The notes below the pieces were generated by a model. It had not been told where the DNA came from, searched no databases, and saw nothing but the letters and a program-made list of their open reading frames with translations. This document shows positions 1 through 46,944 of a DNA stretch of 64,000 nucleotides, one piece after another (position 1 is the stretch's first letter; each line of letters begins with the position of its first letter). Origin of the DNA: Malacoraja senta. Taxonomy: Eukaryota. Location of the stretch: assembly GCA_038087875.1 (NCBI GenBank), contig CM075988.1:10728001-10792000 (forward strand), in the 5' to 3' direction. The position numbers were made by a program, and so were the translations under genes.

Positions 1-1989
1 ATCCAAGTCACCTTGCAGTCTCCTAGCATCCTCCTCACAGCTAACACTGCCCCCCAGCTTAGTGTCATCCGCAAACTTGGAGATGTTGCTTTCAATTCCC
101 TCGTCCAGATCATTAATATAAATTGTAAATAGCTGGGGTCCCAGCACTGAGCCTTGCGGTACCCCACTAGTCACTGCCTGCCATTGTGAAAAGGACCCGT
201 TTACTCCTACTCTTTGCTTCCTGTTTGCCAGCCAGTTCTCTATCCACATCAATACTGAACCCCCAATACCGTGTGATTTAAGCTTGTATCCTAATCTCTT
301 ATGTGGTACCTTGTCGAAAGCCTTCTGAAAGTCCAGATACAACACATCCACTGGTTCTCCCCTATCCACTCTACTAGTTACATCCTCGAAAAATTCTATA
401 AGATTCGTCAGACACGATTTACCTTTCGTAAATCCATGCTGACTTTGTCCAATGATTTCACCACTTTCCAAATGTGCTGCTATCCCATCTTTAATAACTG
501 ACTCTAGCAGTTTCCCCACTACCGATGTTAAACTAACTGGTCTGTAATTCCCCGTTTTCTCTCTCCCTCCCTTCTTAAAAAGTGGGGTTACATTTGCTAC
601 CCTCCAATCCTCAGGAACTACTCCAGAATCTAAAGAATTTTGAAAAATTATCACTAATGCATCCGCTATTTCTGGAGCTACTTCCTTAAGTACTCTGGGA
701 TGCAGCCTATCTGGCCCTGGTGATTTATCGGCCTTTAATCCATTCAATTTACCCAACACCACTTCCCGACTAACCTGGATTTCACTCAGTTCCTCCATCT
801 CCTTTGACCCGCGGCCCCCTGCTATTTCCGGCAGATTATTTATGTCTTCCTTAGTGAAGACGGAACCAAAGTAGTTATTCAATTGGTCCACCATATCCTT
901 GTTCCCCATGATCAATTCCCCTGTTTCTGACTGCAAGGGACCTACATTTGTTTTAACTAATCTCTTTCTCCTCACATATCTATAAAAACTTTTGCAGTCA
1001 GTTTTTATTTTCCCTGCCAGTTTCCTTTCATAATCTATTTTCCCTTTCCTAATTAAGCCCTTTGTCCTCCTCTGCTGGTCTCTGAATTTCTCCCAGTCCT
1101 CTGGTATGCTGCTTTTTCTGGCTGATTTGTACGCAACATCTTTTGCTTTGATACTATCCCTGATTTCCCTTGTTATCCACGGATGCACTACCTTCCCTGA
1201 TTTATTCTTTTGCCAAACTGGGATGAACATTTTTTGTAGTTCATCCATGCAGTCTTTAAATGCCTTCCATTGCATATCCACCGTCAACCCTTTTAGAACT
1301 AATTGCCAGTCAATCTTGGCCAATTCACGTCTCATATCCTCAAAGTTACCTTTCTTTAAGTTCAGAACCGTTGTTTCTGAATTAACAATGTCACTCTCCA
1401 TCCTAATGAAGAACTCAACCATATAATGGTCACTCTTGCCCAAGGGGGCACGCACAACAAGTCTGCTAACTAACCCTTCCTCATTACTCAATACCCAGTC
1501 TAGAATAGCCTGCTCTCTCGTTGGTTCCTCTACATGTTGGTTTAGATAACTATCCCTCATACATTCCAAGAAATCCTCTTCCTCAGCACCCCTGCCAATT
1601 TGATTCACCCAATCTATATGTAGATTGAAGTCACCCATTATAACTGTTTTGCCTTTGTTGCACGCATTTCTAATTTCCTGTTTGATGCCATCCCCAACTT
1701 CACTACTACTGCTAGGTGGCCTGTACACAACACCCACCAGCGTTTTCTGCCCCTTAGTATTTCGTAGCTCTACCCATACCGATTCCACATCCTCCAAGCT
1801 AATGTCCTTCCTTTCCACTGCGTTAATCTCCTCTCTAACCAGCAACGCTACCCCACCTCCTTTTCCTTTCTCTCTATCCCTCCTGAATATTGAATATCCC
1901 TGGATGTTCAGCTCCCAGCCTTGGTCACCCTGGAGCCATGTCTCCGTGATCCCAACTATATCATAATCATTAATTGCTATCTGCACGTT
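1..1989 (-). mobile_element. CR1-clade LINE copy A, 5'-truncated inside the endonuclease, running off the window start
   Basis: Colinear with 2855-4843 at a constant offset of 2854 with scattered substitutions. Ends at ...ctgcacgtt, directly against the microsatellite tail of copy B. Confidence 0.95.
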
Positions 1990-4900
1990 ACATAGATACA
2001 TAGATACATAGAAATTAGGTGCAGGAGTAGGCCATTCGGCCCTTCGAGCCTGCACCGCCATTCAATACGATCATGGCTGATCATCCAACTCAGTATCCCG
2101 TACCTGCCTTCTCTCCATACCCCCTGATCCCTTTAGCCACAAGGGCCACATCTAATTCCCTCTTAAATATAGCCAATGAACTGGCCTCAACTACCCTCTG
2201 TGGCAGAGAGTTCCAGAGATTCACCACTCTCTGTGTGAAAAAGTTTTTCCTCATCTCGGTCTTAAAGGATTTTCCCCTTATCCTTAAGCTGTGACCCCTT
2301 GTCCTGGACTTCCCCAACATCGGGAACAATCTTCCTGCATCTAGCCTGTCCAACCCCATAAGAATCTTGTACGTTTCTATAAGATCCCCTCTCAATCTCC
2401 TAAATTCTAGCGAGTATAAGCCAAGTCTATCCAGTCTTTCTTCATATGAGAGTCCTGACATCCCAGGAATCAGTCTGGTGAACCTTCTCTGCACTCCCTC
2501 TATGGCTATAATGTCCTTCCTCAGATTTGGAGACCAAAACTGTACGCAATACTCCAGGTGTGGTCTCACCAAGACCCTGTACAACTGCAGTAGAACCTCA
2601 CTGCTCCTATACTCAAATCCTCTTGCTATGAAGGCCAACATACCATTCGCTTTCTTCACTGCCTGCTGCACCTGCATGCCTACTTTCAATGACTGGTGTA
2701 CCATGACACCCAGGTCTCGCTGCATCTCCCCATTTCCTAATCGGCCACCATTTAGATAATAGTCTGCCTTCCCGTTTTTGCTACCAAAGTGGATAACCTC
2801 ACATTTATCCACATTATACTGCATCTGCCAAACATTTGCCCACTCACCCAGCCTATCCAAGTCACCTTGCAGTCTCCTAGCATCCTCCTCACAGCTAACA
2901 CTGCCCCCCAGCTTAGTGTCATCCGCAAACTTGGAGATGTTGCTTTCAATTCCCTCGTCCAGATCATTAATATAAATTGTAAATAGCTGGGGTCCCAGCA
3001 CTGAGCCTTGTGGTACCCCACTAGTCACTGCCTGCCATTGTGAAAAGGACCCGTTTACTCCTACTCTTTGCTTCCTGTTTGCCAGCCAGTTCTCTATCCA
3101 CATCAATACTGAACCCCCAATACCGTGTGATTTAAGTTTGTATCCTAATCTCTTATGTGGTACCTTGTCGAAAGCCTTCTGAAAGTCCAGATACAACACA
3201 TCCACTGGTTCTCCCCTATCCACTCTACTAGTTACATCCTCGAAAAATTCTATAAGATTCGTCAGACACGATTTACCTTTCGTAAATCCATGCTGACTTT
3301 GTCCAATGATTTCACCACTTTCCAAATGTGCTGCTATCCCATCTTTAATAACTGACTCTAGCAGTTTCCCCACTACCGATGTTAGACTGACTGGTCTGTA
3401 ATTCCCCGTTTTCTCTCTCCCTCCCTTCTTAAAAAGTGGGGTTACGTTTGCTACCCTCCAATCCTCAGGAACTACTCCAGAATCTAAAGAGTTTTGAAAA
3501 ATTATCACTAATGCATCCACTATTTCTGGAGCTACTTCCTTAAGTACTCTGGGATGCAGCCTATCTGGCCCTGGTGATTTATCGGCCTTTAATCCATTCA
3601 ATTTACCCAACACCACTTCCCGACTAACCTGGATTTCACTCAGTTCCTCCATCTCCTTTGACCCGCGGCCCCCTGCTATTTCCGGCAGATTATTTATGTC
3701 TTCCTTAGTGAAGACGGAACCAAAGTAGTTATTCAATTGGTCTGCCATATCCTTGTTCCCCATGATCAATTCACCTGTTTCTGACTGCAAGGGACCTACA
3801 TTTGATTTAACTAATCTCTTTCTCTTCACATATCTATAAAAACTTTTGCAGTCAGTTTTTATGTTCCCTGCCAGTTTCCTTTCATAATCTATTTTCCCTT
3901 TCCTAATTAAGCCCTTTGTCCTCCTCTGCTGGTCTCTGAATTTCTCCCAGTCCTCTGGTATGCTGCTTTTTCTGGCTAATTTGTACGCATCATCTTTTGC
4001 TTTGATACTATCCCTGATTTCCCTTGTTATCCACGGATGCACTACCTTCCTTGATTTATTCTTTTGCCAAACTGGGATGAACAATTTTTGTAGTTCATCC
4101 ATGCAGTCTTTAAATGCCTTCCATTGCATATCCACCGTCAACCCTTTTAGAACTAATTGCCAGTCAATCTTGGCCAATTCATGTCTCATACCCTCAAAGT
4201 TACCTTTCTTTAAGTTCAGAACCGTTGTTTCTGAATTAACAATGTCACTCTCCATCCTAATGAAGAACTCAACCATATTATGATCACTCTTGCCCAAGGG
4301 GGCACGCACAACGAGTCTGCTAACTAACCCTTCCTCATTACTCAATACCCAGTCTAGAATAGCCTGCTCTCTCGTTGGTTCCTCTACATGTTGGTTTAGA
4401 TAACTATCCCTCATACATTCCAAGAAATCCTCTTCCTCAGCACCCCTGCCAATTTGATTCACCCAATCTATATGTAGATTGAAGTCACCCATTATAACTG
4501 TTTTGCCTTTGTTGCACGCATTTCTAATTTCCTGTTTGATGCCATCCCCAAATTCACTACTACTGCTAGGTGGCCTGTACACAACGCCCACCAGCGTTTT
4601 CTGCCCCTTAGTGTTTCGCAGCTCTACCCATACCGATTCCACATCCTCCAAGCTAATGTCCTTCCTTTCCACTGCGTTAATCTCCTCTCTAACCAGCAAC
4701 GCCACCCCACCTCCTTTTCCTTTCTCTCTATCCCTCCTGAATATTGAATATCCCTGGATGTTCAGCTCCCAGCCTTGGTCACCTTGGAGCCATGTCTCCG
4801 TGATCCCAACTATATCATAATCATTAATTGCTATCTGCACGTTCAACTCATCCACCTTATTACGAATGCTCCTTGCATTGAGACACAAAGCCTTCAGACT

Positions 4901-6115
4901 TGTTTTTACAACGCTCTTACCCCTTATACAATTATGTTGAAAAGTGGCTCTTTTTGATTTTTGTCCTGGATTTGTCTGCCTGCCACTTTTACCTTTCACC
5001 TTGCTACCTATTGCTTCCGCCCGCATTTTGCACCCCTCTGTTTCTCTGCTCACCCATTTAAGAACCCCACCACCTCTTATTCTCTGTTTATTATTGTTTT
5101 CTTCTTTCCCCCCTACATGTTGGGTCTGAGTGCTTTCCTTCTCTGCCTCCTGCCTCACACACTGTCTAATAGCATTCTCTATTTGAGTCCCTCCCCCCAA
5201 CCATTCTAGTTTAAAGTCTCCCCAGTAGCCTTTGCAGATCTCCCTGCCAGGATATCGGTCCCCCTCAGGTTCAAGTGCAACCCATCCTTTTTGTACAGGT
5301 CGTACCTTCCACAAAAGAGGTCCCAATGATCCAGAAATTTGAATCCCTGCCTTCTGCACCAGTCCTTCAGCCACGCATTTATCCTCCACCTCGCTCCATT
5401 CCTACTCTCACTGTCGCGTGGCACAGGCAGTAATCCCGAGATTGTTACCTTCGCTGTCCTTCTCTTTAACTCCCCTCCTAACTCCCTAAATTCTCCTTTC
5501 AGGACCTCTTCTCTTTTTTTACCTATGTCATTGGTACCTATATGTATCACGACTTCGGGCTCCTCTCCCTTCCCTTTCAGGATGTCTTGGACACGTTGAG
5601 ACACATCACAGACCCTGGCACCAGGGAGGCAAACTACCATCCGAGTCTCCCGACTGCATCCACAGAATCGCCTGTCTGACCCCCTAACTATAGAGTCCCC
5701 TATTAATATTGCCCTCCTCTTCTTACCCTTCTGAGCAACAGGACCGGTCTCTATACCGGAGGCCCGGCCGCTGTCGCTACCCCCAGGTAGGCTGTCCACC
5801 CCAACAGTGCTCAAACAGGAGTACTTATTGTCAAGGTGTACAGCCACCGGGGTACTCTCTAGTCCCTGCCTGTGCCCCTTGCCTCTCCCAACCGTGATCC
5901 ACTTGCCTGCCTCCTGTGGTGTTGGAGTGACCACATCCCTGTAACTCCTCTCGATGACTTCCTCGCTCTCCCTGACCAGACGGAGGTCATCGAGCTGCTG
6001 CTCCAGGTTCCTAATATGGTCCATTAGGAGCCCCATCTCGATACACCTGACGCAGATGTGGACGTCTGGAGGGCTATCAGACTCCATGACTTCCCACATC
6101 TGACATCCAGAACAG
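1990..6115 (-). mobile_element. Near-full-length CR1-clade LINE copy B (ORF1+ORF2+3'UTR, 5'UTR missing)
   Basis: Two long minus-strand ORFs, a short 3'UTR, and a (TATCTATG)n octamer tail at 1990-2011. Confidence 0.95.
2090..5215 (-). CDS. CR1 ORF2: APE endonuclease + reverse transcriptase, uninterrupted
   Basis: APE motifs LNARSI, ITETW, GDFN, SDH. RT motifs [32 protein letters not shown]1 C-terminus RPHLEYCVQFWSP. First in-frame ATG is at 5026; the frame stays open upstream across the ORF1 stop. Confidence 0.95.
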   Translation of the reverse strand, partial: FKLEWLGGGTQIENAIRQCVRQEAEKESTQTQHVGGKEENNNKQRIRGGGVLKWVSRETEGCKMRAEAIGSKVKGKSGRQTNPGQKSKRATFQHNCIRGKSVVKTSLKALCLNARSIRNKVDELNVQIAINDYDIVGITETWLQGDQGWELNIQGYSIFRRDREKGKGGGVALLVREEINAVERKDISLEDVESVWVELRNTKGQKTLVGVVYRPPSSSSEFGDGIKQEIRNACNKGKTVIMGDFNLHIDWVNQIGRGAEEEDFLECMRDSYLNQHVEEPTREQAILDWVLSNEEGLVSRLVVRAPLGKSDHNMVEFFIRMESDIVNSETTVLNLKKGNFEGMRHELAKIDWQLVLKGLTVDMQWKAFKDCMDELQKLFIPVWQKNKSRKVVHPWITREIRDSIKAKDDAYKLARKSSIPEDWEKFRDQQRRTKGLIRKGKIDYERKLAGNIKTDCKSFYRYVKRKRLVKSNVGPLQSETGELIMGNKDMADQLNNYFGSVFTKEDINNLPEIAGGRGSKEMEELSEIQVSREVVLGKLNGLKADKSPGPDRLHPRVLKEVAPEIVDALVIIFQNSLDSGVVPEDWRVANVTPLFKKGGREKTGNYRPVSLTSVVGKLLESVIKDGIAAHLESGEIIGQSQHGFTKGKSCLTNLIEFFEDVTSRVDRGEPVDVLYLDFQKAFDKVPHKRLGYKLKSHGIGGSVLMWIENWLANRKQRVGVNGSFSQWQAVTSGVPQGSVLGPQLFTIYINDLDEGIESNISKFADDTKLGGSVSCEEDARRLQGDLDRLGEWANVWQMQYNVDKCEVIHFGSKNGKADYYLNGGRLGNGEMQRDLGVMVHQSLKVGMQVQQAVKKANGMLAFIARGFEYRSSEVLLQLYRVLVRPHLEYCVQFWSPNLRKDIIAIEGVQRRFTRLIPGMSGLSYEERLDRLGLYSLEFRRLRGDLIETYKILMGLDRLDAGRLFPMLGKSRTRGHSLRIRGKSFKTEMRKNFFTQRVVNLWNSLPQRVVEASSLAIFKRELDVALVAKGIRGYGEKAGTGY

Positions 6116-6126
6116 TATGTGTACAT
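5206..6126 (-). CDS. CR1 ORF1: CxxC..CxxC knuckle, coiled coil, SGNH/GDSL esterase domain
   Basis: CSGC...CVRC, LEQQLDDL coil, and SGNH blocks GDS, PGA, GTND, DGLH. The first 3-4 codons probably come from flanking DNA. Confidence 0.92.
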   Translation of the reverse strand: MYTYCSGCQMWEVMESDSPPDVHICVRCIEMGLLMDHIRNLEQQLDDLRLVRESEEVIERSYRDVVTPTPQEAGKWITVGRGKGHRQGLESTPVAVHLDNKYSCLSTVGVDSLPGGSDSGRASGIETGPVAQKGKKRRAILIGDSIVRGSDRRFCGCSRETRMVVCLPGARVCDVSQRVQDILKGKGEEPEVVIHIGTNDIGKKREEVLKGEFRELGGELKRRTAKVTISGLLPVPRDSESRNGARWRINAWLKDWCRRQGFKFLDHWDLFCGRYDLYKKDGLHLNLRGTDILAGRSAKATGETLN

Positions 6127-6431
6127 ATGTGTACTGATAAGGTAGACTGTCGAGGAAGAGGTGCAATAGGTTTGTACTCTGCAACGATATTTTCTATCCT
6201 CTAAAAGTCCACTATAACAGCTTCAGGGTTTGATGAGCTTGGTCACTGTGGTGCAACTGAACCATTCTTTATGAAGGACATTGAGTTCATGTTCCAGACC
6301 TTATTTCATGCTCTTGATCTCTTTGTGCTGCTTCTGAGTATTACTGGCATTTGGGTGTACACCACCAATGAACTACAGGACGGCAAGAAGAGTTTTGGTC
6401 ACAAAACACTGGGGCTTCAGAATAGATCTAA

Positions 6432-8618: not shown

Positions 8619-10442
8619 TCTATATTACTAAAAGTCTGATCTTGACCACTTCCTGTTGTTCTGTATATTGATTTTAGAAAAAACTCTGCCACTTACGGCT
8701 GTGATTTTTGGCCATCTTACTCATAGTCCCCCTCCGCTGTGCAGGACAAGAGGATTTTTCCCATCGATGAAAAATAAAACATTTTTATTAGTGTTTATAA
8801 AATGTTGAGATTCTCTCTCCCGAAGGCCACGCACCTTTCGGAGGGACTATAAAACCCGGAAGTGTTGAGTGCCTCAGTCAGTCTCTGCAAGATGGGGGAG
8901 CGAGAGGGTCACGTCTCTCAGTCTAAGCTGTAAATAACACTGAACACATGTCTACTAAACTGTGAGTGTGGTTTTACTGACCTTGTGCGCCCTTAATGTG
9001 GTTTGAAAATGAAAACGTGGTTAGATTGAGATAAAGCACAGCAAATGGTTGGTGGTGGTTGGTTTGAAATGGCAAATGATTAAAAGTCTAAACTTGACAA
9101 CTTCCTGTTTGCACGCTATATTGATTCTAGATAAAACGCTACCACTTACGTCTGTGATTTTTGGCCATCTTACTCAGTCCCCCTCCGCTCATCAGGTGCA
9201 GAATAAATACAAGTGTTATTAGTGTTTAAAAAATGTCAATGAAAAATAAAAGTGTTAGTAGTGTTTAAAAAATGATGAGAATCTCTCTCCTGTCAATCAC
9301 GCCATGAAGGCCACGCCCCTTCCGGTGCGAGGGGGAGAGTTATAAAACCCGGAAGTGTGGGTGTGGCTCAGTCTCTGCAAGATGGGGGAGGGAGCGTTTA
9401 CGACTGTCTGAGCTGTGAATCAACTGAAAACACTGAATGTCTACTGAACTGTGAGTCTGGTGTTGTGGTGTTTTGAAGTGTTTTGTGAGGTTTTATGGTG
9501 GTTTTATGGTGGTTTCACCCTGCTTGAATTGGTATGAAACTGCAATTGAATGTGGTGGCCTGGCACCCTGCAGGAAATGGTATGAAACTGCATTTGAATT
9601 TGGTGGCCTTGCACCCTGCTTGAAATAGTACAAATCTGCATTTGAATTTGGTTGCCTTGCACCCTGCTTAAAATGGCATGAAACTGCACTTGAATTTGGT
9701 GGCCTTGCACCCTGCTTGAATTGGCATGAAACTGCACTTGAATTTGGTGGCGTTGCACCCTGCTTGATGGCATGAAACTGCACTTGAATTTGGTGGCCTT
9801 GCACCCTGCTTGAAGTGGCATGAAACTGCACTTGAGTTTGGTGGCCTTGCACCCTGTTTGAAGTGGTAGGAAACTGCACTTAAGTTTGGTGGCCCTGCAC
9901 CCTGCTTGAAGTGGTAGGAAACTGCACTTGAGTTTGGTGGCCTTGCACCCTGCTTGATGTGGTAGGAAACAGCACATGAATTTGGTGGCCTTGCACCCTG
10001 CTTGAAGTGGTATGAAACTGCACTTGAATTTGGTGGCCTTGCAACCTGCTTGAGTTGGTATGAAACTGCACTTGAATTTAGTGGCCTTGCACCCTGAAAT
10101 GGTAGGAAACTGCATTTGAATTTGTTGGCCTTGCACCCTGCTTGAAATGGAATTTCAAGGAATATCCGTGAGTCAACTACCAGCCCACCAGCCGTGAGTG
10201 AGCTGCCAGCACATCAGGCTTGAGTGACTGAGCTTCCACCCCAATAATCCATTTGGCCCACAATGTCCATACTAGCCCTCTGGAAACCAGTCCCATCAGC
10301 GCACTACACCCATACTAGCACTCCAGAAGCCCCCCCCCCCACACTCCACTGGCCACCAATATTGGTGGAGAGGTGGAATATTATGTTGGGGGACCAGCCC
10401 TCCCGTGTGAACATGGGACCCAACGGGTCCAACTTATTCTAG
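8619..10442 (+). mobile_element. Non-autonomous Helitron, copy 1
   Basis: Starts A|TCTATATTACTAAAAG and ends CTAG|T. GGACCC-AAC-GGGTCC hairpin (10416-10430) lies 8 nt before CTAG. No TSD. Second copy at 32978-34025. Confidence 0.9.
9516..10150. repeat. 48-bp minisatellite (about 13 units) inside the Helitron
   Basis: Unit ccttgcaccctgcttgaagtggtatgaaactgcacttgaatttggtgg; 16-aa periodicity in the ORF track. Confidence 0.95.
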
Positions 10443-26088: not shown

Positions 26089-26900
26089 TCTTGGTTCTTG
26101 GTTTCTTGGTCCTCCAAAATATTCCAAATGGAATTTAAACTGGAGGTGGTGGAGGGAGGACTTAAGCCAGAAAGGGTTTTGGGGAAGAAAGAGCTACCTT
26201 AAATTTAGTTGCATCTGGTTGAGTAACTAAAGTAGGGTGGAGATTATTCCATGCTTTAATTGTGCGGGGGAAGAACGTATTGCTGTACACATCTGTCTTG
26301 GTAGCTGGAATCACAAATTGTATCGAATGCCCTCGTCTGCTCCTAGTTGGTTTGGGTTCGGTGTAGGTCTTGTAATCTATGTCGAGCTGACCATTTAACA
26401 TTTTGTAAAAACAGGTCAAACGGTGAGCTTCACGTCTGTCTTGGAGAGGGTTCCACCCCAGAGAATTCAGAAGTTTGGTAACACTCGCTTCTCTCTCATA
26501 GGTGTTAGTAACAAATCGAGCTGCCTGTCTTTGGACACCTTCGATGGAAGAAATGTTTTTATTTGTGTATGGGTCCCATGCTGCAACTGCATAGTCCAAA
26601 TGAGGTCTAACGAGGGTGAAGTATAGCTTCTCCTTGACAGAAGTTGAACAATGATGAAAGTTTAGCCTCAGAAAATTTAGGACACCTGTTGCTTTCACCG
26701 TTGCATGATGAGTCTCACCATTCCAACGCAGATCATTCTGCAATTTGATGCCAAGATACTTGGTTTGTTTGATTCTTCAAGGGTGGTACCAAGTATATTG
26801 TACGATGTTTCGCCTGGATTCCTCTTTCTGGTGACACGCATGTTTCACATTTGGAAGGGTTGAACTGCATGCCCCATTGGTGTGACCACTCAACCATTGT
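26089..26900 (-). mobile_element. 5'-truncated CR1-clade LINE of a divergent type
   Basis: EWSHQWGMQFNPSKC...LVRPHLDYAVAAWDPY...LGWNPLQDRR...FFPRTIKAWNNL; (CCAAGAA)n tail; ~19-bp duplication at 26065-26083 and 26918-26936. Confidence 0.85.
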
Positions 26901-38490: not shown

Positions 38491-40934
38491 CCCCTCAAAC
38501 CAGATTAATTATTACATCTGTTAAAATAGCATCTAAAATAAATTCATTGCATTATTACATTTGAATCACTTTATCGTATTATTTGGGTTTTCATGGTACT
38601 GGCTAAATTATTGATCTCCACTGGAAATGTAATAAGCCAGTACTTAGAAGAAACTACAGGTACTAACTGCACAAGATAGTCTACCTGCAGTCTACTGAAA
38701 CTGGCAGTTAAGCTCAGTTGGTACCACTTTGTGCACTGAAAACAAAAATTAAAATCCACTGTAGAGCAAAGTACATTATTTTTGCCGATACATCAGCACG
38801 ATGCTGAAGGTGTTTTGTACTGCTGGAGGAACGTTTTTTTTCCGTTTTCCGGGCTTCCAAACTAATTATCTGCTCGTTGATTTTCTGTTTGTGGGGCCCC
38901 TGCTGTGTACAAACTGGTAGGTACATCTGCTTGCAAAGCAGACGGGTGACTTCAGTTCAATGCTCTGGGATATGTTGAGAATCTGATCAATGCTATGTAA
39001 ATACAAATGCTTCTTTCAGATACAAAGAAGCAGTGAGCTAGAAGGATTAGTAGAATGGTACTTCAATTCCTCACCGGTTCCCCCAAAAAATTACTGTCCC
39101 CGTGACATGCTCCCAGTCGACCTGTCTTTCATGTTAATGGACTAGGATGCACTACTTTAGCATTGTTACACCATCTTGCTCACTTTACCTGCAGAATAGC
39201 TTTAAGTGAATTATTAAGCAAGCTAGTGCAGATACTAATTAACCAATGACCCCGCAAGCGGTGTCTTGCCAACAGTCATCTATTCAGCGTTTGAAAAGGT
39301 CATGCAGTAGCATTAATATTCCTGTGTGGGCATGATACTAAGGAGTAAGTTTGAGAAGTCAGTGTGCAGGCCTCAAACACTTGTAATCTTTCGGTTGCAT
39401 TACCAGCTTCAAGGTACAAAACCTCTGTGGGTTGCCAACGTGTTTTGACTTGCAAATAACTGGAAACGTTCAGCTTCCCGAGGCATCAAGCCTTATTTTT
39501 CAGAAGGGAGATGATCGAGCCTGTGTGGACCCACCACCGAACTCCACGCCCCTGATCTAACTTGAAATGTAGTCACTATTGTTCTGTCAAAAAACATGCC
39601 AGTATTTTGCTCACAACAAAGTAACAGAAGCATCACTGAAAACCTGCCCAGGAAATTATTTTGGTGGATATTAAAGTTCCATGAGTTCATATTAGCCCAT
39701 AGACTCTGGGAGAAATTTATCCCCGGCAGCATGTGCTAAATGTACATAATACCAGCAATTGTCACCTGAACATGTCTTCTGAAATTTGACTCTATTGAAG
39801 ATAAAGGAACCATATTTTGGAAATTGAATATGATGCCCAGTTTCTATAACACATATATGTTTATTGCAAGTTATGGAAACAACTGCCTAACTATGAGGCT
39901 TGAGGTAAATGATTGAAAAGGAAAAAAACTTGCAGATACTGGACATTACCCAAGTTCTTTCTGCCCTCCTCCACCCTCTCTTTGTGACATAAAACTAATG
40001 TATTTTTTCACCTTTCCAATTCTGAAGAAGCGTTATTGGTCTGAATGTTTTCTCCCTCAACTCTGCTTGACCTGCTGAATGCGCCCAGCATTTTCTGTTT
40101 TTATTTCAGATTTCAGCTATTTGGTTTGCATTTTTTTAACTTTCAAGTCCTTGCAGTTTATCCAAATTCTTTGTGGATTCCATAGAAATAATTAACATGC
40201 ATTCAGCAAATCCTTCTCTTTGAAATAATAGACATGAAATGTTCAGAATTGTCATTAAAAGAAACTTAAGTACATTCATTGAGTGTTTTTCAAGTAACAT
40301 AAAATGTCACCTTCCGCTCTTTAGAAACTATGGTTACATAAATTGACGCATACGATATTTTTACATAATAAAGTAGTAAATAAGATTTTAAAGCCAAAAG
40401 TTTTGATATCAGTCTATGTAAGTGCATTAAAATCATGAATTTCAAAGATATTAACTATAAATGTTCTCCAAATTCATTCAAGGGAGATAAATGTCCTGAA
40501 ATTAAACAAACAAAAACATTTGTAGTAAAGCATTTGTTCAAACCTCCTTACAAACAGAATCAGAAAACAGAATCTGAAAAAGGGTCTCGACCCAAAACGG
40601 CACACATTCCTTCTATCAAGAGATGCTGCCTGTCCCGCTGAGTGACTCCAGCATTTTGTGTCTATCAGAAATTAGATGTTGGTGGATTCAGATACCAATC
40701 AGATTTGTGGCTGTATTCATTTGTAAAGGCTGATTCGTAAAGTGAGCTCTGTATTATAAACTGAAGGACACTCGCAAGGTATGTACTGAATCCTGGGTTG
40801 CCTATTCTGGGTTGCCTATTCCTTAAAGTTGCTTGCTACGCTTGAGTGAATTTCATTAGTTCATGGTTAGACAGGAGCGTTAGACTAAATTGGGTTAATA
40901 TAAGAAGTTAAAATAATTGGCAATCCCCTTGCAA

Positions 40935-42452
40935 TTTGGAAAAGCTGCAAGGCTGCTTCGCATGCACTGATTGGGAAGTTTTCCGCGCAGCTGGTGTCCT
41001 CCACGACTACACGGACACAGTGACGTCATATGTCCAATTTTGCGAGCAACTCTGTATCCCTTCAAGAACGGTTAAACAATACAACAATAAGCCCTGGTTC
41101 ACAAAAGAAATTCAACAATTAAGAACTGAGAAAAATGCTGCATATAAATCTGGAAATAAGCAGGACTACATGGCTGCAAAATATCAATTAAGGTCTACAA
41201 TAAGGAAAGCCAAACACAATTATGCCACCAAAATAGAACAAGAAATCTCAACCAACAACACTAGAACTGTCTGGAAAAAACTTCAGGAAATCACCAACTA
41301 CAAAAAGAAATCCACCCCCATCCCTGATAATGATCATCAACTCCCAGACAAACTGAACACTTTCTATGGCAGGTTTGAACAGTCTCCAGTCCCTCCACCA
41401 TCGTCCCCCTCTCCTCTTCCTCCCCCTCCATTCCACATCCAGGAGGCCGAGGTGAGGACTACCTTCAGGAGACAGAAGAAAAACAAATCTGCAGGCCCAG
41501 ACAACATCAGCCCAGACAACATCAGCCCAGCAGTGCTCCATCATTGTGCAGCAGAACTGGCCCCTGTGTTCACCAACATCTTCAATACCTCCCTCTGCCA
41601 ATGTTCAGTGCCCCAGTGCTTCAAACAATCCACCATCATTCCTGTGCCCAAGTCTAACACACATCCTGCCTCAATGACTACAGACCGATTGCCCTTACAT
41701 CTGTGGCCATGAAGTCATTTGAGCACATTATTCTCGTTCACCTCAAAACCAGCACTTCCTCCAACATGGACCCACATCAATTTGCATATAGAGCCAACAG
41801 GTCAGTAGAAGACACAGTCAACCTGGCCATCCATCACACTCTGCAACACCTGGAAACCGCCAACACTTACGCCCGCATCCTGTTCATGGACTTCAGTTCG
41901 GCATTCAACTCCATCAACCCGGTCAAACTCTTCCATAAATTAACGGACATGAACATTGACCCCCTGCATCTGTCATTGGATCTATAGCTTCCTTTGGAAC
42001 AGACAACAGAGGGTGAAGATACATAACACCATATCTCACCCTCTGCACCTCAGTACAGGAGCCCCTCAGGGCTGCGTCTTGTCACCCTGGTTATTCTCAC
42101 TCTACACAAATCAACTCACATCCCAGTATAGTTCAGTCAAAATATATAAATACGCAGATGACACAACCATCATAGGTCTCATCTCTAACAACAACGAAAC
42201 AGAATACCGCACTCAAACAAACAAAGCAGTCACTTGGTGCACAGATAATAACCTCCTACTCAACACATCAAAAACACATGAACTTATCATTGATCTCAGA
42301 CGTAAGGCACAACCCAATGTTGTTGTGTTTTATGTTATGTTTGACGGGAATCAGCCTATTGTGTAACATCCTGTACTGAACATGAATTCCACCAGCTTGA
42401 CTGTGTGGTCATTAAATAATCTGAATCTGAAGTAATCTGAATCTGATTCTGA
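40935..42452 (+). mobile_element. Rex1/Babar-clade LINE fragment (RT, frameshifted, 3' internally deleted)
   Basis: LQGCFACTDWEVF, NNKPWF, DPHQFAYRANRS, DFSSAFN, GAPQGCVLSP, YADD. Jumps to a 3'UTR near 42316; (TCTGAA)n tail. Confidence 0.9.
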
Positions 42453-45203: not shown

Positions 45204-45917
45204 TTAGGGTCCCCGGGGTTCTTTAGTCTGAAGAATGGACTTGACCCGAAACGTCACCTATTCCTTTTTTCCAGAGATGCTACTTGACCCGCTGAGTTAC
45301 TCTAGCTTTTTGTGTCTATTCCCGGGGTTGCTCCAGCACCTAACATTTCCATGCAGCAACCCACCTTCTGACTGAGCACCTTTCAGAAAGGACTGAGTTT
45401 AACTGAGAAGCTTCTCATTCAATCCAATTCAGTCTCATTCCTTGTCAGACTGAAGGGCCTGTCCCACTAAGGTGACTTTTTAGGCGAGTGCAGGAGACTG
45501 CGCTCGCCATATGGTCGCCACATGTTCGCTGGTGGTCTCTGGTGAGTCTCCTTCATGGTCGCGAGGAGTTCCTACATTCTGGTAACAAGTCTCGGCCTCA
45601 GTTTGGTCGGCGCAAATTTTTCAACATGTTGAACATTTTTCTGCGACCAAAAATTGGTTGCCATGGAGTAAATCGATAATCCTGTAGTCGTAGGTGCAGT
45701 TGTAGTGGGGTCGCCATGTAGTTATGAGTAGTCGTAGGTAGTTTTAGTTAATCACCTTTGCTGACCGGGCATTTTCATTGGCATATTGAGGGAAAAAAAA
45801 CGTAAGCACGAGATTTCAGAACCAAGAATAGCCGACCGGTAATGTTAAATGCCTGCCAAACTTCACAGCTGTATATCTCTGGCTTATTAAAAGTTGTCTG
45901 GCATCTTAAAAGTGTCT

Positions 45918-46356
45918 CCACTCCTCCCCACCACCATTCCCCCCCCACCCCCTTCTCCCCCCCCCCGTTTTCCCCCCCTTCTCCCCCCCCTTCTCCCCCC
46001 CTTCTCCCCCCCTCCTTCTCCCCCCCTCCTTCTCCCCCCTCTCTCCCCCCTTCTCTCCCCTCTTCTCTCCCCCCTCTCCCCCTCTTCTCTCCCCCATTCT
46101 CTCCCCCCTTCTCTCCCCCACCTTCTCCCCACCGCCCTTCTCCCCACCGCCCTTCTCCCCACCGCCCTTCACCTCACCGCTCTTCTCCCCACCCCTTTAT
46201 ACTCCCCCCCTTCTCTCCCCCCCTTCTCCCCACCACCCTTCACCCCACCGCCCTTCTACTCCCCCCCTTCTCTCCACCCCTTCTCCCCCCATTCTTCCCC
46301 CATCTCCCCCATTCTCCCCTCCCCCTCCCATATTCTCCCCTCCCCACCCCCCCTCT
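45918..46356. repeat. Polypyrimidine/polypurine low-complexity tract
   Basis: ccccttctcccc-type units. Confidence 0.95.
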
Positions 46357-46495
46357 TTTAAAGGACTTACGATACACTGTGCTTGCCATTGTAACCTTCC
46401 TGCTCATCGCAGTGTGTGTCTCTATTACCTGGGCTTTGCACCGTGTGAATTTCGGACAGCGCTCGCCCCCCCCGCTTTCCCTGGCCCCGCCTTTG

Positions 46496-46498
<3 letters not shown>

Positions 46499-46586
<88 letters not shown>
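46499..46586. repeat. (TG)44 microsatellite
   Basis: Direct reading. Confidence 0.98.
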
Positions 46587-46587
<1 letters not shown>

Positions 46588-46944
46588 TTCCAGGTTTTTC
46601 ACGCGTGTGCCGGGAACTTGCCAGTCGCCGGTAATTCGCTGAAAAATCGTCTAAATGGGATAGGCCCTTTACAGACATCAAGTTATATCTCCAATATTAT
46701 TTCAGATTATGGCAGACCTAATATTTATGCTTTTCCTAGCTATCACAATAAAGTGGCATTATCATCTGTCAGGCAAAGTCCTTTAATAGCCTACACCTGC
46801 TACACAACACCTCCCTCCAAGTTGAATGGCACATGACAAGGCCCTGAAACATTTTTGAGCACTTTCCATATCTCAAGGATCGTGAAATTCGCTATTTGAC
46901 ATGCATGGGCTTGGTTAATTGGGAAGATCCTAATGAATCAAACA

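Follow-up and report, generated by a model that had tools for sequence, protein, structure and literature searches.

A conserved slippery heptamer at the end of ORF1 in CR1 LINEs, best read as a −1 frameshift site

The CR1 element of the window

The window, by which we mean the whole stretch of 64,000 nucleotides of Malacoraja senta DNA that was analysed, carries on its minus strand an element that is a CR1 LINE of the esterase type, with part of a second copy behind it:

6126-1989, minus strand: CR1-type LINE with a finger-helix-esterase ORF1 and an APE-RT ORF2
5206..6126, minus strand: ORF1, 306 aa from the in-frame ATG at 6126 (PF13472; PDB 4c1b)
2090..5215, minus strand: ORF2 counted from the putative slip site, 1041 codons, with APE at about 4897-4280 and RT at about 3421-2777
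1989..2089, minus strand: 3' UTR without poly(A), ending in three 8-bp repeats at 1989-2012
1..1989, minus strand: second ORF2 copy, 5'-truncated, head-to-tail, 98.6% identical, without the ORF1/ORF2 junction

ORF1 is built of a Cys-rich finger, a long helix and an SGNH esterase (PF13472), the structural match of which is the esterase of ZfL2-1 (PDB 4c1b, E 2e-41). Helices are predicted at 35-75, the long one, which is likely to form a coiled coil, and at 296-314, the last one of the esterase, which is closed by L314 and terminates at Leu-Asn. ORF2 carries APE and RT, the domain search found no protease domain, and the ORF2 frame is open over 5401..2090 of the minus strand. In a 10-row tree without named references the ORF2 clusters with bird-like ORF2s (100/100), away from teleost esterase LINEs, and the closest named ORF1s among the best 120 of 147 protein matches are those of a skate (79-83% identity). 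Short 8-bp tandem repeats without poly(A) at the 3' end are a feature of vertebrate CR1, and here the tail holds 3.0 copies of an 8-mer at 1989-2012, with similar ends in two bird-like loci (L003, L012). The second copy begins directly behind this repeat tail and is open as far as the window edge. A finger-helix-esterase ORF1 with an APE-RT ORF2, as here, is described for CR1 subgroup 7 with its type IVB ORF1 (PMC4120745) and for ZfL2-1 (PDB 4c1b, PMC3905857); unlike the CR1 of the window, ZfL2-1-like ORF1s have no LN end.

The likely 5' boundary of the copy lies at 6110-6140, where a short duplicated motif provides the in-frame ATG at 6126, and the native 5' UTR may be missing. As relatives differ before the first cysteines, the window copy may be cut just inside the ORF1 start, and our claim is therefore about the family and not about expression of this copy. 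Elsewhere in the window, older 3' fragments of related LINEs (67-77% identity) lie at 52402-51849, 50645-50243 and 19010-18727, and five stop-to-stop frames longer than 200 codons, including 9504-10154, 26162-26776, 40912-41712 and 45806-46836, gave no Pfam match.

The heptamer and the Leu-Asn end of ORF1

The junction between the two ORFs consists of the following features:

5209..5215, minus strand: slippery heptamer U_UUA_AAC in X_XXY_YYZ phase, seen in the sequence and conserved in relatives
5206..5208, minus strand: ORF1 stop TAG adjoining the heptamer; TAG, TAA or TGA in relatives
5189..5198, minus strand: G-tract GGGGGG-A-GGG after a 10-nt spacer, candidate linear stimulator

An initial sequence-only reading of this DNA had proposed that a −1 frameshift heptamer links ORF1 to ORF2, and its account of the window was borne out in most respects. 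The minus strand reads GAG ACT TTA AAC TAG, so that T_TTA_AAC at 5215-5209 stands in phase just before the stop, and it is the only in-phase X_XXY_YYZ heptamer within ORF1. The −1 frame is indeed that of ORF2, with 0 stops in the 110 codons past the heptamer as against 10 and 8 in the other frames. The long open stretch said to precede the first ORF2 ATG is there (5026, codon 64 from the heptamer), and the APE domain follows at about the 105 codons given, its first strand at codon 107 (4897) and the APE Asn at codon 113. The fusion, put at about 1,350 aa, comes by arithmetic to 306 + 1039 = 1345 aa from the ATG at 6126. The junction peptide, given as ..ETLK or ETFK.., has to be revised: canonical tandem slippage retains both slip-site residues, here Leu-Asn, and the main peptide would be ..ETLN-LEW... 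Given the amino acids, the background probability of T + TTA + AAC is 0.003-0.015 per lineage; a single heptamer could thus be due to chance, and conservation is therefore the deciding question.

A single metagenome scan, seeded on the esterase-core motif rather than on the junction, returned 33 loci, of which 13 are CR1 loci that reach the ORF1 end, 19 are cut earlier and one (L031) is L2-like and lacks the heptamer site. N_TTA_AAC stands at the ORF1 end in all 13 CR1 loci that reach it, N being T in 12 and G in one (L002), in a sample in which 12 of the 13 junctions are amniote-like and six come from one assembly. When these 13 and the window are aligned over 300 nt, TTAAAC is the sole invariant 6-nt run, at pairwise nucleotide identities of 38-84% (median 52%).

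Could the heptamer merely reflect a protein that needs Leu-Asn to end the esterase helix, with codons alike by descent? The closure of the predicted last helix by L314 and the invariance of both L and N in the ORF1 protein alignment A1 would agree with this, but equally conserved residues in the same loci change codon. Among the 11 loci with a readable ORF1 a single codon is used in only 4 of 53 conserved columns, two of which are the terminal Leu (TTA, 11/11) and the terminal Asn (AAC, 11/11); 49 of the 51 others vary in codon, including the other 10 conserved Leu columns and the other Asn column (AAT 7, AAC 4). AAC and AAT are silent alternatives in both frames and yet AAC is fixed, whereas the stop codon itself varies (TAG, TAA, TGA). 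Moreover, the ZfL2-1 esterase and teleost L2-type ORF1s end without LN. The codon comparison thus goes most of the way to refuting an explanation by protein constraint or common descent, which we regard as extremely improbable. As codons are fixed at silent sites while other columns and the stop vary, the constraint is on the nucleotides of the heptamer, whose synonymous sites are conserved across CR1s of skate-like to bird-like type. In runs X4 and X11 the contig depth shows a peak of about 3-fold over 5180-5229, as expected if many subfamilies share this stretch, and 5204-5236 is free of variants among the variants listed (40 of 109).

The locus with G in first position (L002:680-3601) belongs to a CR1-like element that is intact and branches deeply; its G_UUA_AAC is followed by two TAG stops in tandem and by a G-tract at +8. 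Its ORF2 is 43% identical to that of the window and forms a deep branch in the tree, and its ORF1 clusters weakly (89/59) with the KN/FF clade described below. Three proteins of a further CR1 group (P0292, P0294, P0297) read 'GVKL' before APE, which would agree with the G_UUA_AAC variant.

The Leu-Asn end recurs in the ORF1 proteins. Within the best 120 of 147 matches, the top 68 were examined, of which 55 align to the C-terminal helix: 49 end in LN, two in LN plus 1-3 residues and one in IN, one is cut short, and two run on as FKL into the −1 frame. They include entries from skate, ray, shark, chimaera, coelacanth and the frog Xenopus, at identities down to 29%; the LN end is absent in the 52 lower matches listed, mostly teleost L2-like or unnamed. 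For bird- and turtle-type ORF1s the best 120 of 257 matches gave 119 new proteins, 91 reaching the end, and 83 of these 91 listed matches end in LN. The residue before LN has no U-ending codon in only 2 of 133 LN-ending proteins, as against 35 and 49 at the two preceding positions, a test that is only suggestive since position −6 likewise gives 2 of 133.

In a divergent clade of esterase ORF1s, eight proteins (P0085, P0087, P0088, P0091-P0095) have 'KN' near the position of the vertebrate LN, and four of its sister group (P0071, P0074-P0076) have 'FF' nearby; these ends could reflect slip sites of the forms A_AAA_AAC and U_UUU_UUY in the corresponding position. Two CR1 ORF1 proteins carry bacterial names (P0022 and P0204; Pseudomonas, Klebsiella), which is probably host contamination of the assemblies, and scans of viral contigs and prokaryote genomes and a plasmid search found no relatives.

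Conservation by itself names no function, and the nucleotides might serve another purpose, such as a splice acceptor at the TAG, an internal promoter or a packaging or RNA-binding site, with ORF2 made from a separate or spliced mRNA. The motif does end in ..AACTAG, followed by the G-tract. However, pyrimidines make up only a fraction of 0.30-0.50 of the 20 nt upstream, so that a polypyrimidine tract is lacking, one locus (L023) has no AG at that place, no joint at 5205/5206 is found among the joints listed, and a separate mRNA would require an AUG, which is absent from several linkers. A role of this kind therefore seems to us very unlikely.

The −1 frame downstream of the heptamer

Three features of the window lie between the heptamer and the APE domain:

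4898..5209, minus strand: open −1-frame linker of about 105 codons from the putative slip site to APE, seen in the sequence
5051..5062, minus strand: relic of an older APE first strand (LKWV; LKC in relatives); subfamily contigs have loose ends at 5055 and a variant at 5054
5024..5026, minus strand: first in-frame ORF2 ATG (codon 64), inside a segment absent from short-linker subfamilies

The sequence-only reading had left it to other copies to show whether the heptamer, the −1 phase and the open linker are kept, or rather the ATG. In the alignment of junctions it is the heptamer and the open −1 linker that are kept, not the AUG. Relative to the heptamer, 10 of 11 loci have APE in the −1 frame, starting at codons 40-113, and nine of these ten in-phase loci have no stop before APE, the tenth (L010) having one; L028 has lost both stop and phase, and L020 the stop. 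Upstream of the heptamer the −1 frame is closed within 1-5 codons in 8 of 14 loci and a Met is found in 0 of 14, on which grounds an overlapping ORF2 initiated upstream was rejected. ORF2 is therefore entered at or past the heptamer.

A Met before the APE Asn is lacking in L024 and in 4 of 11 FKL-containing proteins, some of which may be spliced models; elsewhere it is scattered at positions 4 to 90. These proteins come from 159 ORF2-type proteins examined, 12 of which have FKL upstream of APE, one (P0393) being dropped for a mis-assigned APE start. Most of the remaining ORF2-type proteins begin at a downstream Met, by gene-caller convention, and 14 proteins annotated as long ORF1-ORF2 fusions are apparently spliced or chimeric gene models.

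Short-linker subfamilies, whose contigs from three runs were read by hand, leave the window sequence at about 5055 and go straight into the first APE strand. Their entry into APE (5056, from hand-read contig ends) precedes the AUG of the window, which is thus part of a stretch of ~55 codons missing from those subfamilies; the difference of ~55 codons between short- and long-linker subfamilies preserves the frame. The linker over 5062-4898 looks like a frame-preserving mosaic of a relic APE strand, ~55 codons and a second APE start, and in runs X1, X4 and X11 subfamilies of both kinds occur side by side. A related long-linker subfamily retains the window AUG (contig loose ends at 5017). Among the variants listed for skate-like runs (40 of 109), 10 of 11 in linker codons 1-54 are non-synonymous and 8 of 11 in codons 58-106 are synonymous; protein constraint is therefore visible only around and after the AUG, a pattern that fits an unconstrained tether and also use of the AUG in the skate-like lineage. 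Translation from a distant AUG would not need the phase lock.

Termination-reinitiation has been described for SART1 and suggested for L1 (PMC5972666); in CR1 it would mean a restart at an AUG or non-AUG codon near the stop and a free ORF2p, with the heptamer belonging to a signal for pausing or retention. A restart near the stop would likewise hold the linker in phase, an in-frame AUG lies 3-6 nt into or after the stop in 5 of 14 loci (once as UAAUG) and GTG at the same place in two more, and UGGGA, at the distance of a TURBS, lies 72-76 nt upstream of the stop in 4 of 14; caliciviruses, for their part, tolerate non-AUG starts (PMC5972666). Yet neither the AUG nor UGGGA is conserved, whereas the heptamer is. 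The window has no AUG beside the stop and no UGGGA 40-90 nt upstream, the nearest being at 117 nt. Reinitiation also leaves unexplained the constant, exact −1 frame, the fixed silent AAC/AAT site and the fixed base before TTA, and we consider it unlikely.

Downstream of the heptamer, a G-rich run does start after a 6-nt spacer, as had been noted, but the spacing typical of stimulators claimed for it did not hold: the conserved G5 follows a 10-nt spacer, and the window has no significant hairpin after the heptamer (z −0.7 to −1.5). G5 starts at +11 in 10 of 12 loci and at +10 and +8 in the other two, it usually precedes NN-RGG, and the residues encoded around the tract vary. In 10 of the 12 loci the 25 nt over the G-tract rank among the top 1.4% in G-richness. 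No significant or shared stem-loop was found 5-9 nt downstream in the 12 loci (z −1.0 to +1.6), Rfam gave no match at the junction, and a shared long-range partner for the G-tract was not found, the best partners in the 12 loci lying at unrelated places. Four bird-like loci (L004, L011, L012, L015) have a small hairpin at about +25 to +55, too far for a standard stimulator. A shared hairpin stimulator was rejected, this hairpin being absent from the window and other loci and its z-scores not significant.

Linear, factor-bound stimulation is known from PRRSV, at 11 nt, as against RNA structures at 5-9 nt (PMC5009743), and the spacing of the CR1 G-tract appears to match the former better. A G-quadruplex is predicted by ViennaRNA in only 3 of 12 loci, and the accessible text of a 2016 review names no natural G-quadruplex stimulator of frameshifting (PMC5009743). 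The G5-NN-RGG tract is the best candidate for the stimulator, as a factor-bound linear RNA or as a G-quadruplex.

Mechanism, precedents and meaning

What the comparison of the sequences shows is a genuine signal at the nucleotide level, conserved to great depth, for which a −1 frameshift site is the best reading. The frameshift interpretation first put forward for the window is supported: the heptamer is conserved at synonymous sites, 10 of 11 loci keep the phase and no AUG is conserved. We think it probable that esterase-type CR1 LINEs make their APE-RT as an ORF1-ORF2 fusion by programmed −1 ribosomal frameshifting. Most ribosomes would halt at the stop adjoining the heptamer and release ORF1p, whereas a minority would slip one base back with the Leu- and Asn-tRNAs, reading ..L-N-L.., and would pass through the variable tether into APE and RT, producing here a fusion of ~1,345 aa. 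As the heptamer lies at the end of the last esterase helix, the fusion would carry the whole of ORF1p. By way of its N-terminal helix it could enter assemblies of ORF1p, much as Gag-Pol is taken up with Gag, and, no protease domain having been found, it would either remain uncleaved or depend on an enzyme of the host. In the related ZfL2-1, the N-terminal part of ORF1p forms dimers (PMC3905857), which would let the fusion co-assemble. Frameshifting and use of the AUG could coexist.

The components of such a mechanism are known from other systems. On mammalian ribosomes few heptamers are as prone to shift as U_UUA_AAC, and coronaviruses of the IBV type have the same heptamer in the same phase between ORF1a and ORF1b, with the polymerase ORF in the −1 frame (PMC5009743). 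In CR1, in contrast, the stop adjoins the heptamer, no stem-loop is conserved at 5-9 nt and the host of the signal is a chromosomal LINE. A structural ORF in excess with an enzyme ORF fused to it by a −1 shift is likewise the arrangement of Gag-Pol in retroviruses and LTR retrotransposons and of PEG10 and PNMA3 (PMC5009743), although the ORF1p of CR1 is an SGNH esterase, not Gag, and no protease domain was found with it. In PRRSV nsp2, nsp1beta-PCBP acts on CCCANCUCC 11 nt downstream, so that there, as in CR1, a linear motif takes the place of a fold; the motif is C-rich in PRRSV and G-rich in CR1, and the PRRSV shift is mainly −2. Among APE-type non-LTR elements, TRE5-A and TRE3-A of Dictyostelium are said in a review to require a −1 frameshift for ORF2 (PMC5911963), so −1 frameshifting in a LINE has precedent, the likeness resting on that review's statement and the amoebal elements having a different ORF1. 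SART1 and mammalian L1 share with CR1 a bicistronic RNA and a low output of ORF2, but make their ORF2p as a separate protein, by way of a UAAUG overlap or of an AUG in a spacer, whereas the ORF2 of CR1 overlaps in the −1 frame without a conserved AUG.

Remarks on the overlap may be found in the first descriptions of CR1, from the late 1990s, and in Repbase. The literature that we searched, which lay outside those sources and included PMC10275272 and PMC4255032, held no report of CR1 frameshifting. A frameshift at the ORF1/ORF2 junction is not mentioned in the accessible parts of PMC4120745 and PMC3905857; the text seen of PMC5009743 names HeT-A and TART as the non-LTR cases and contains 'CR1' 0 times, and that of PMC8665684 has 0 matches to frameshift, ORF1 and ORF2. 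The start of LINE ORF2 is called an open and important question in a review, the cases described so far being reinitiation, and no frameshift is among the initiation routes given in its accessible part (PMC3894237).

A wider reading, which we offer as possible but doubtful, is that CR1, as the dominant LINE of birds, reptiles and cartilaginous fish, makes all its RT as an esterase-APE-RT fusion, through a new class of −1 frameshift stimulator, a linear G-tract at a fixed 10-nt spacer. The G-tract would then be a natural G-quadruplex or be bound by a factor, possibly ORF1p itself. We know of no trans-acting frameshift factor for CR1. On this view the signal would have persisted since jawed vertebrates arose, and non-vertebrate esterase LINEs may share it, with other heptamers.

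CR1 is the most abundant repeat of the chicken, at 11.8% of the model chromosomes (PMC11835228), and if the frameshift reading is true, the predicted ORF2 protein of this repeat would change to a Gag-Pol-like fusion. It would also explain why ORF2 models in databases begin inside the endonuclease, many at MGNKQ.., past the first APE strand. On this reading the site functions like that of a coronavirus or of Gag-Pol and yet fails the standard-hairpin test, and it would be a natural frameshift cassette without a hairpin. In skates, sharks and birds, a common LINE ends its ORF1 with a slippery heptamer of the coronavirus type, and its reverse transcriptase would be physically tied to a lipid-binding esterase.
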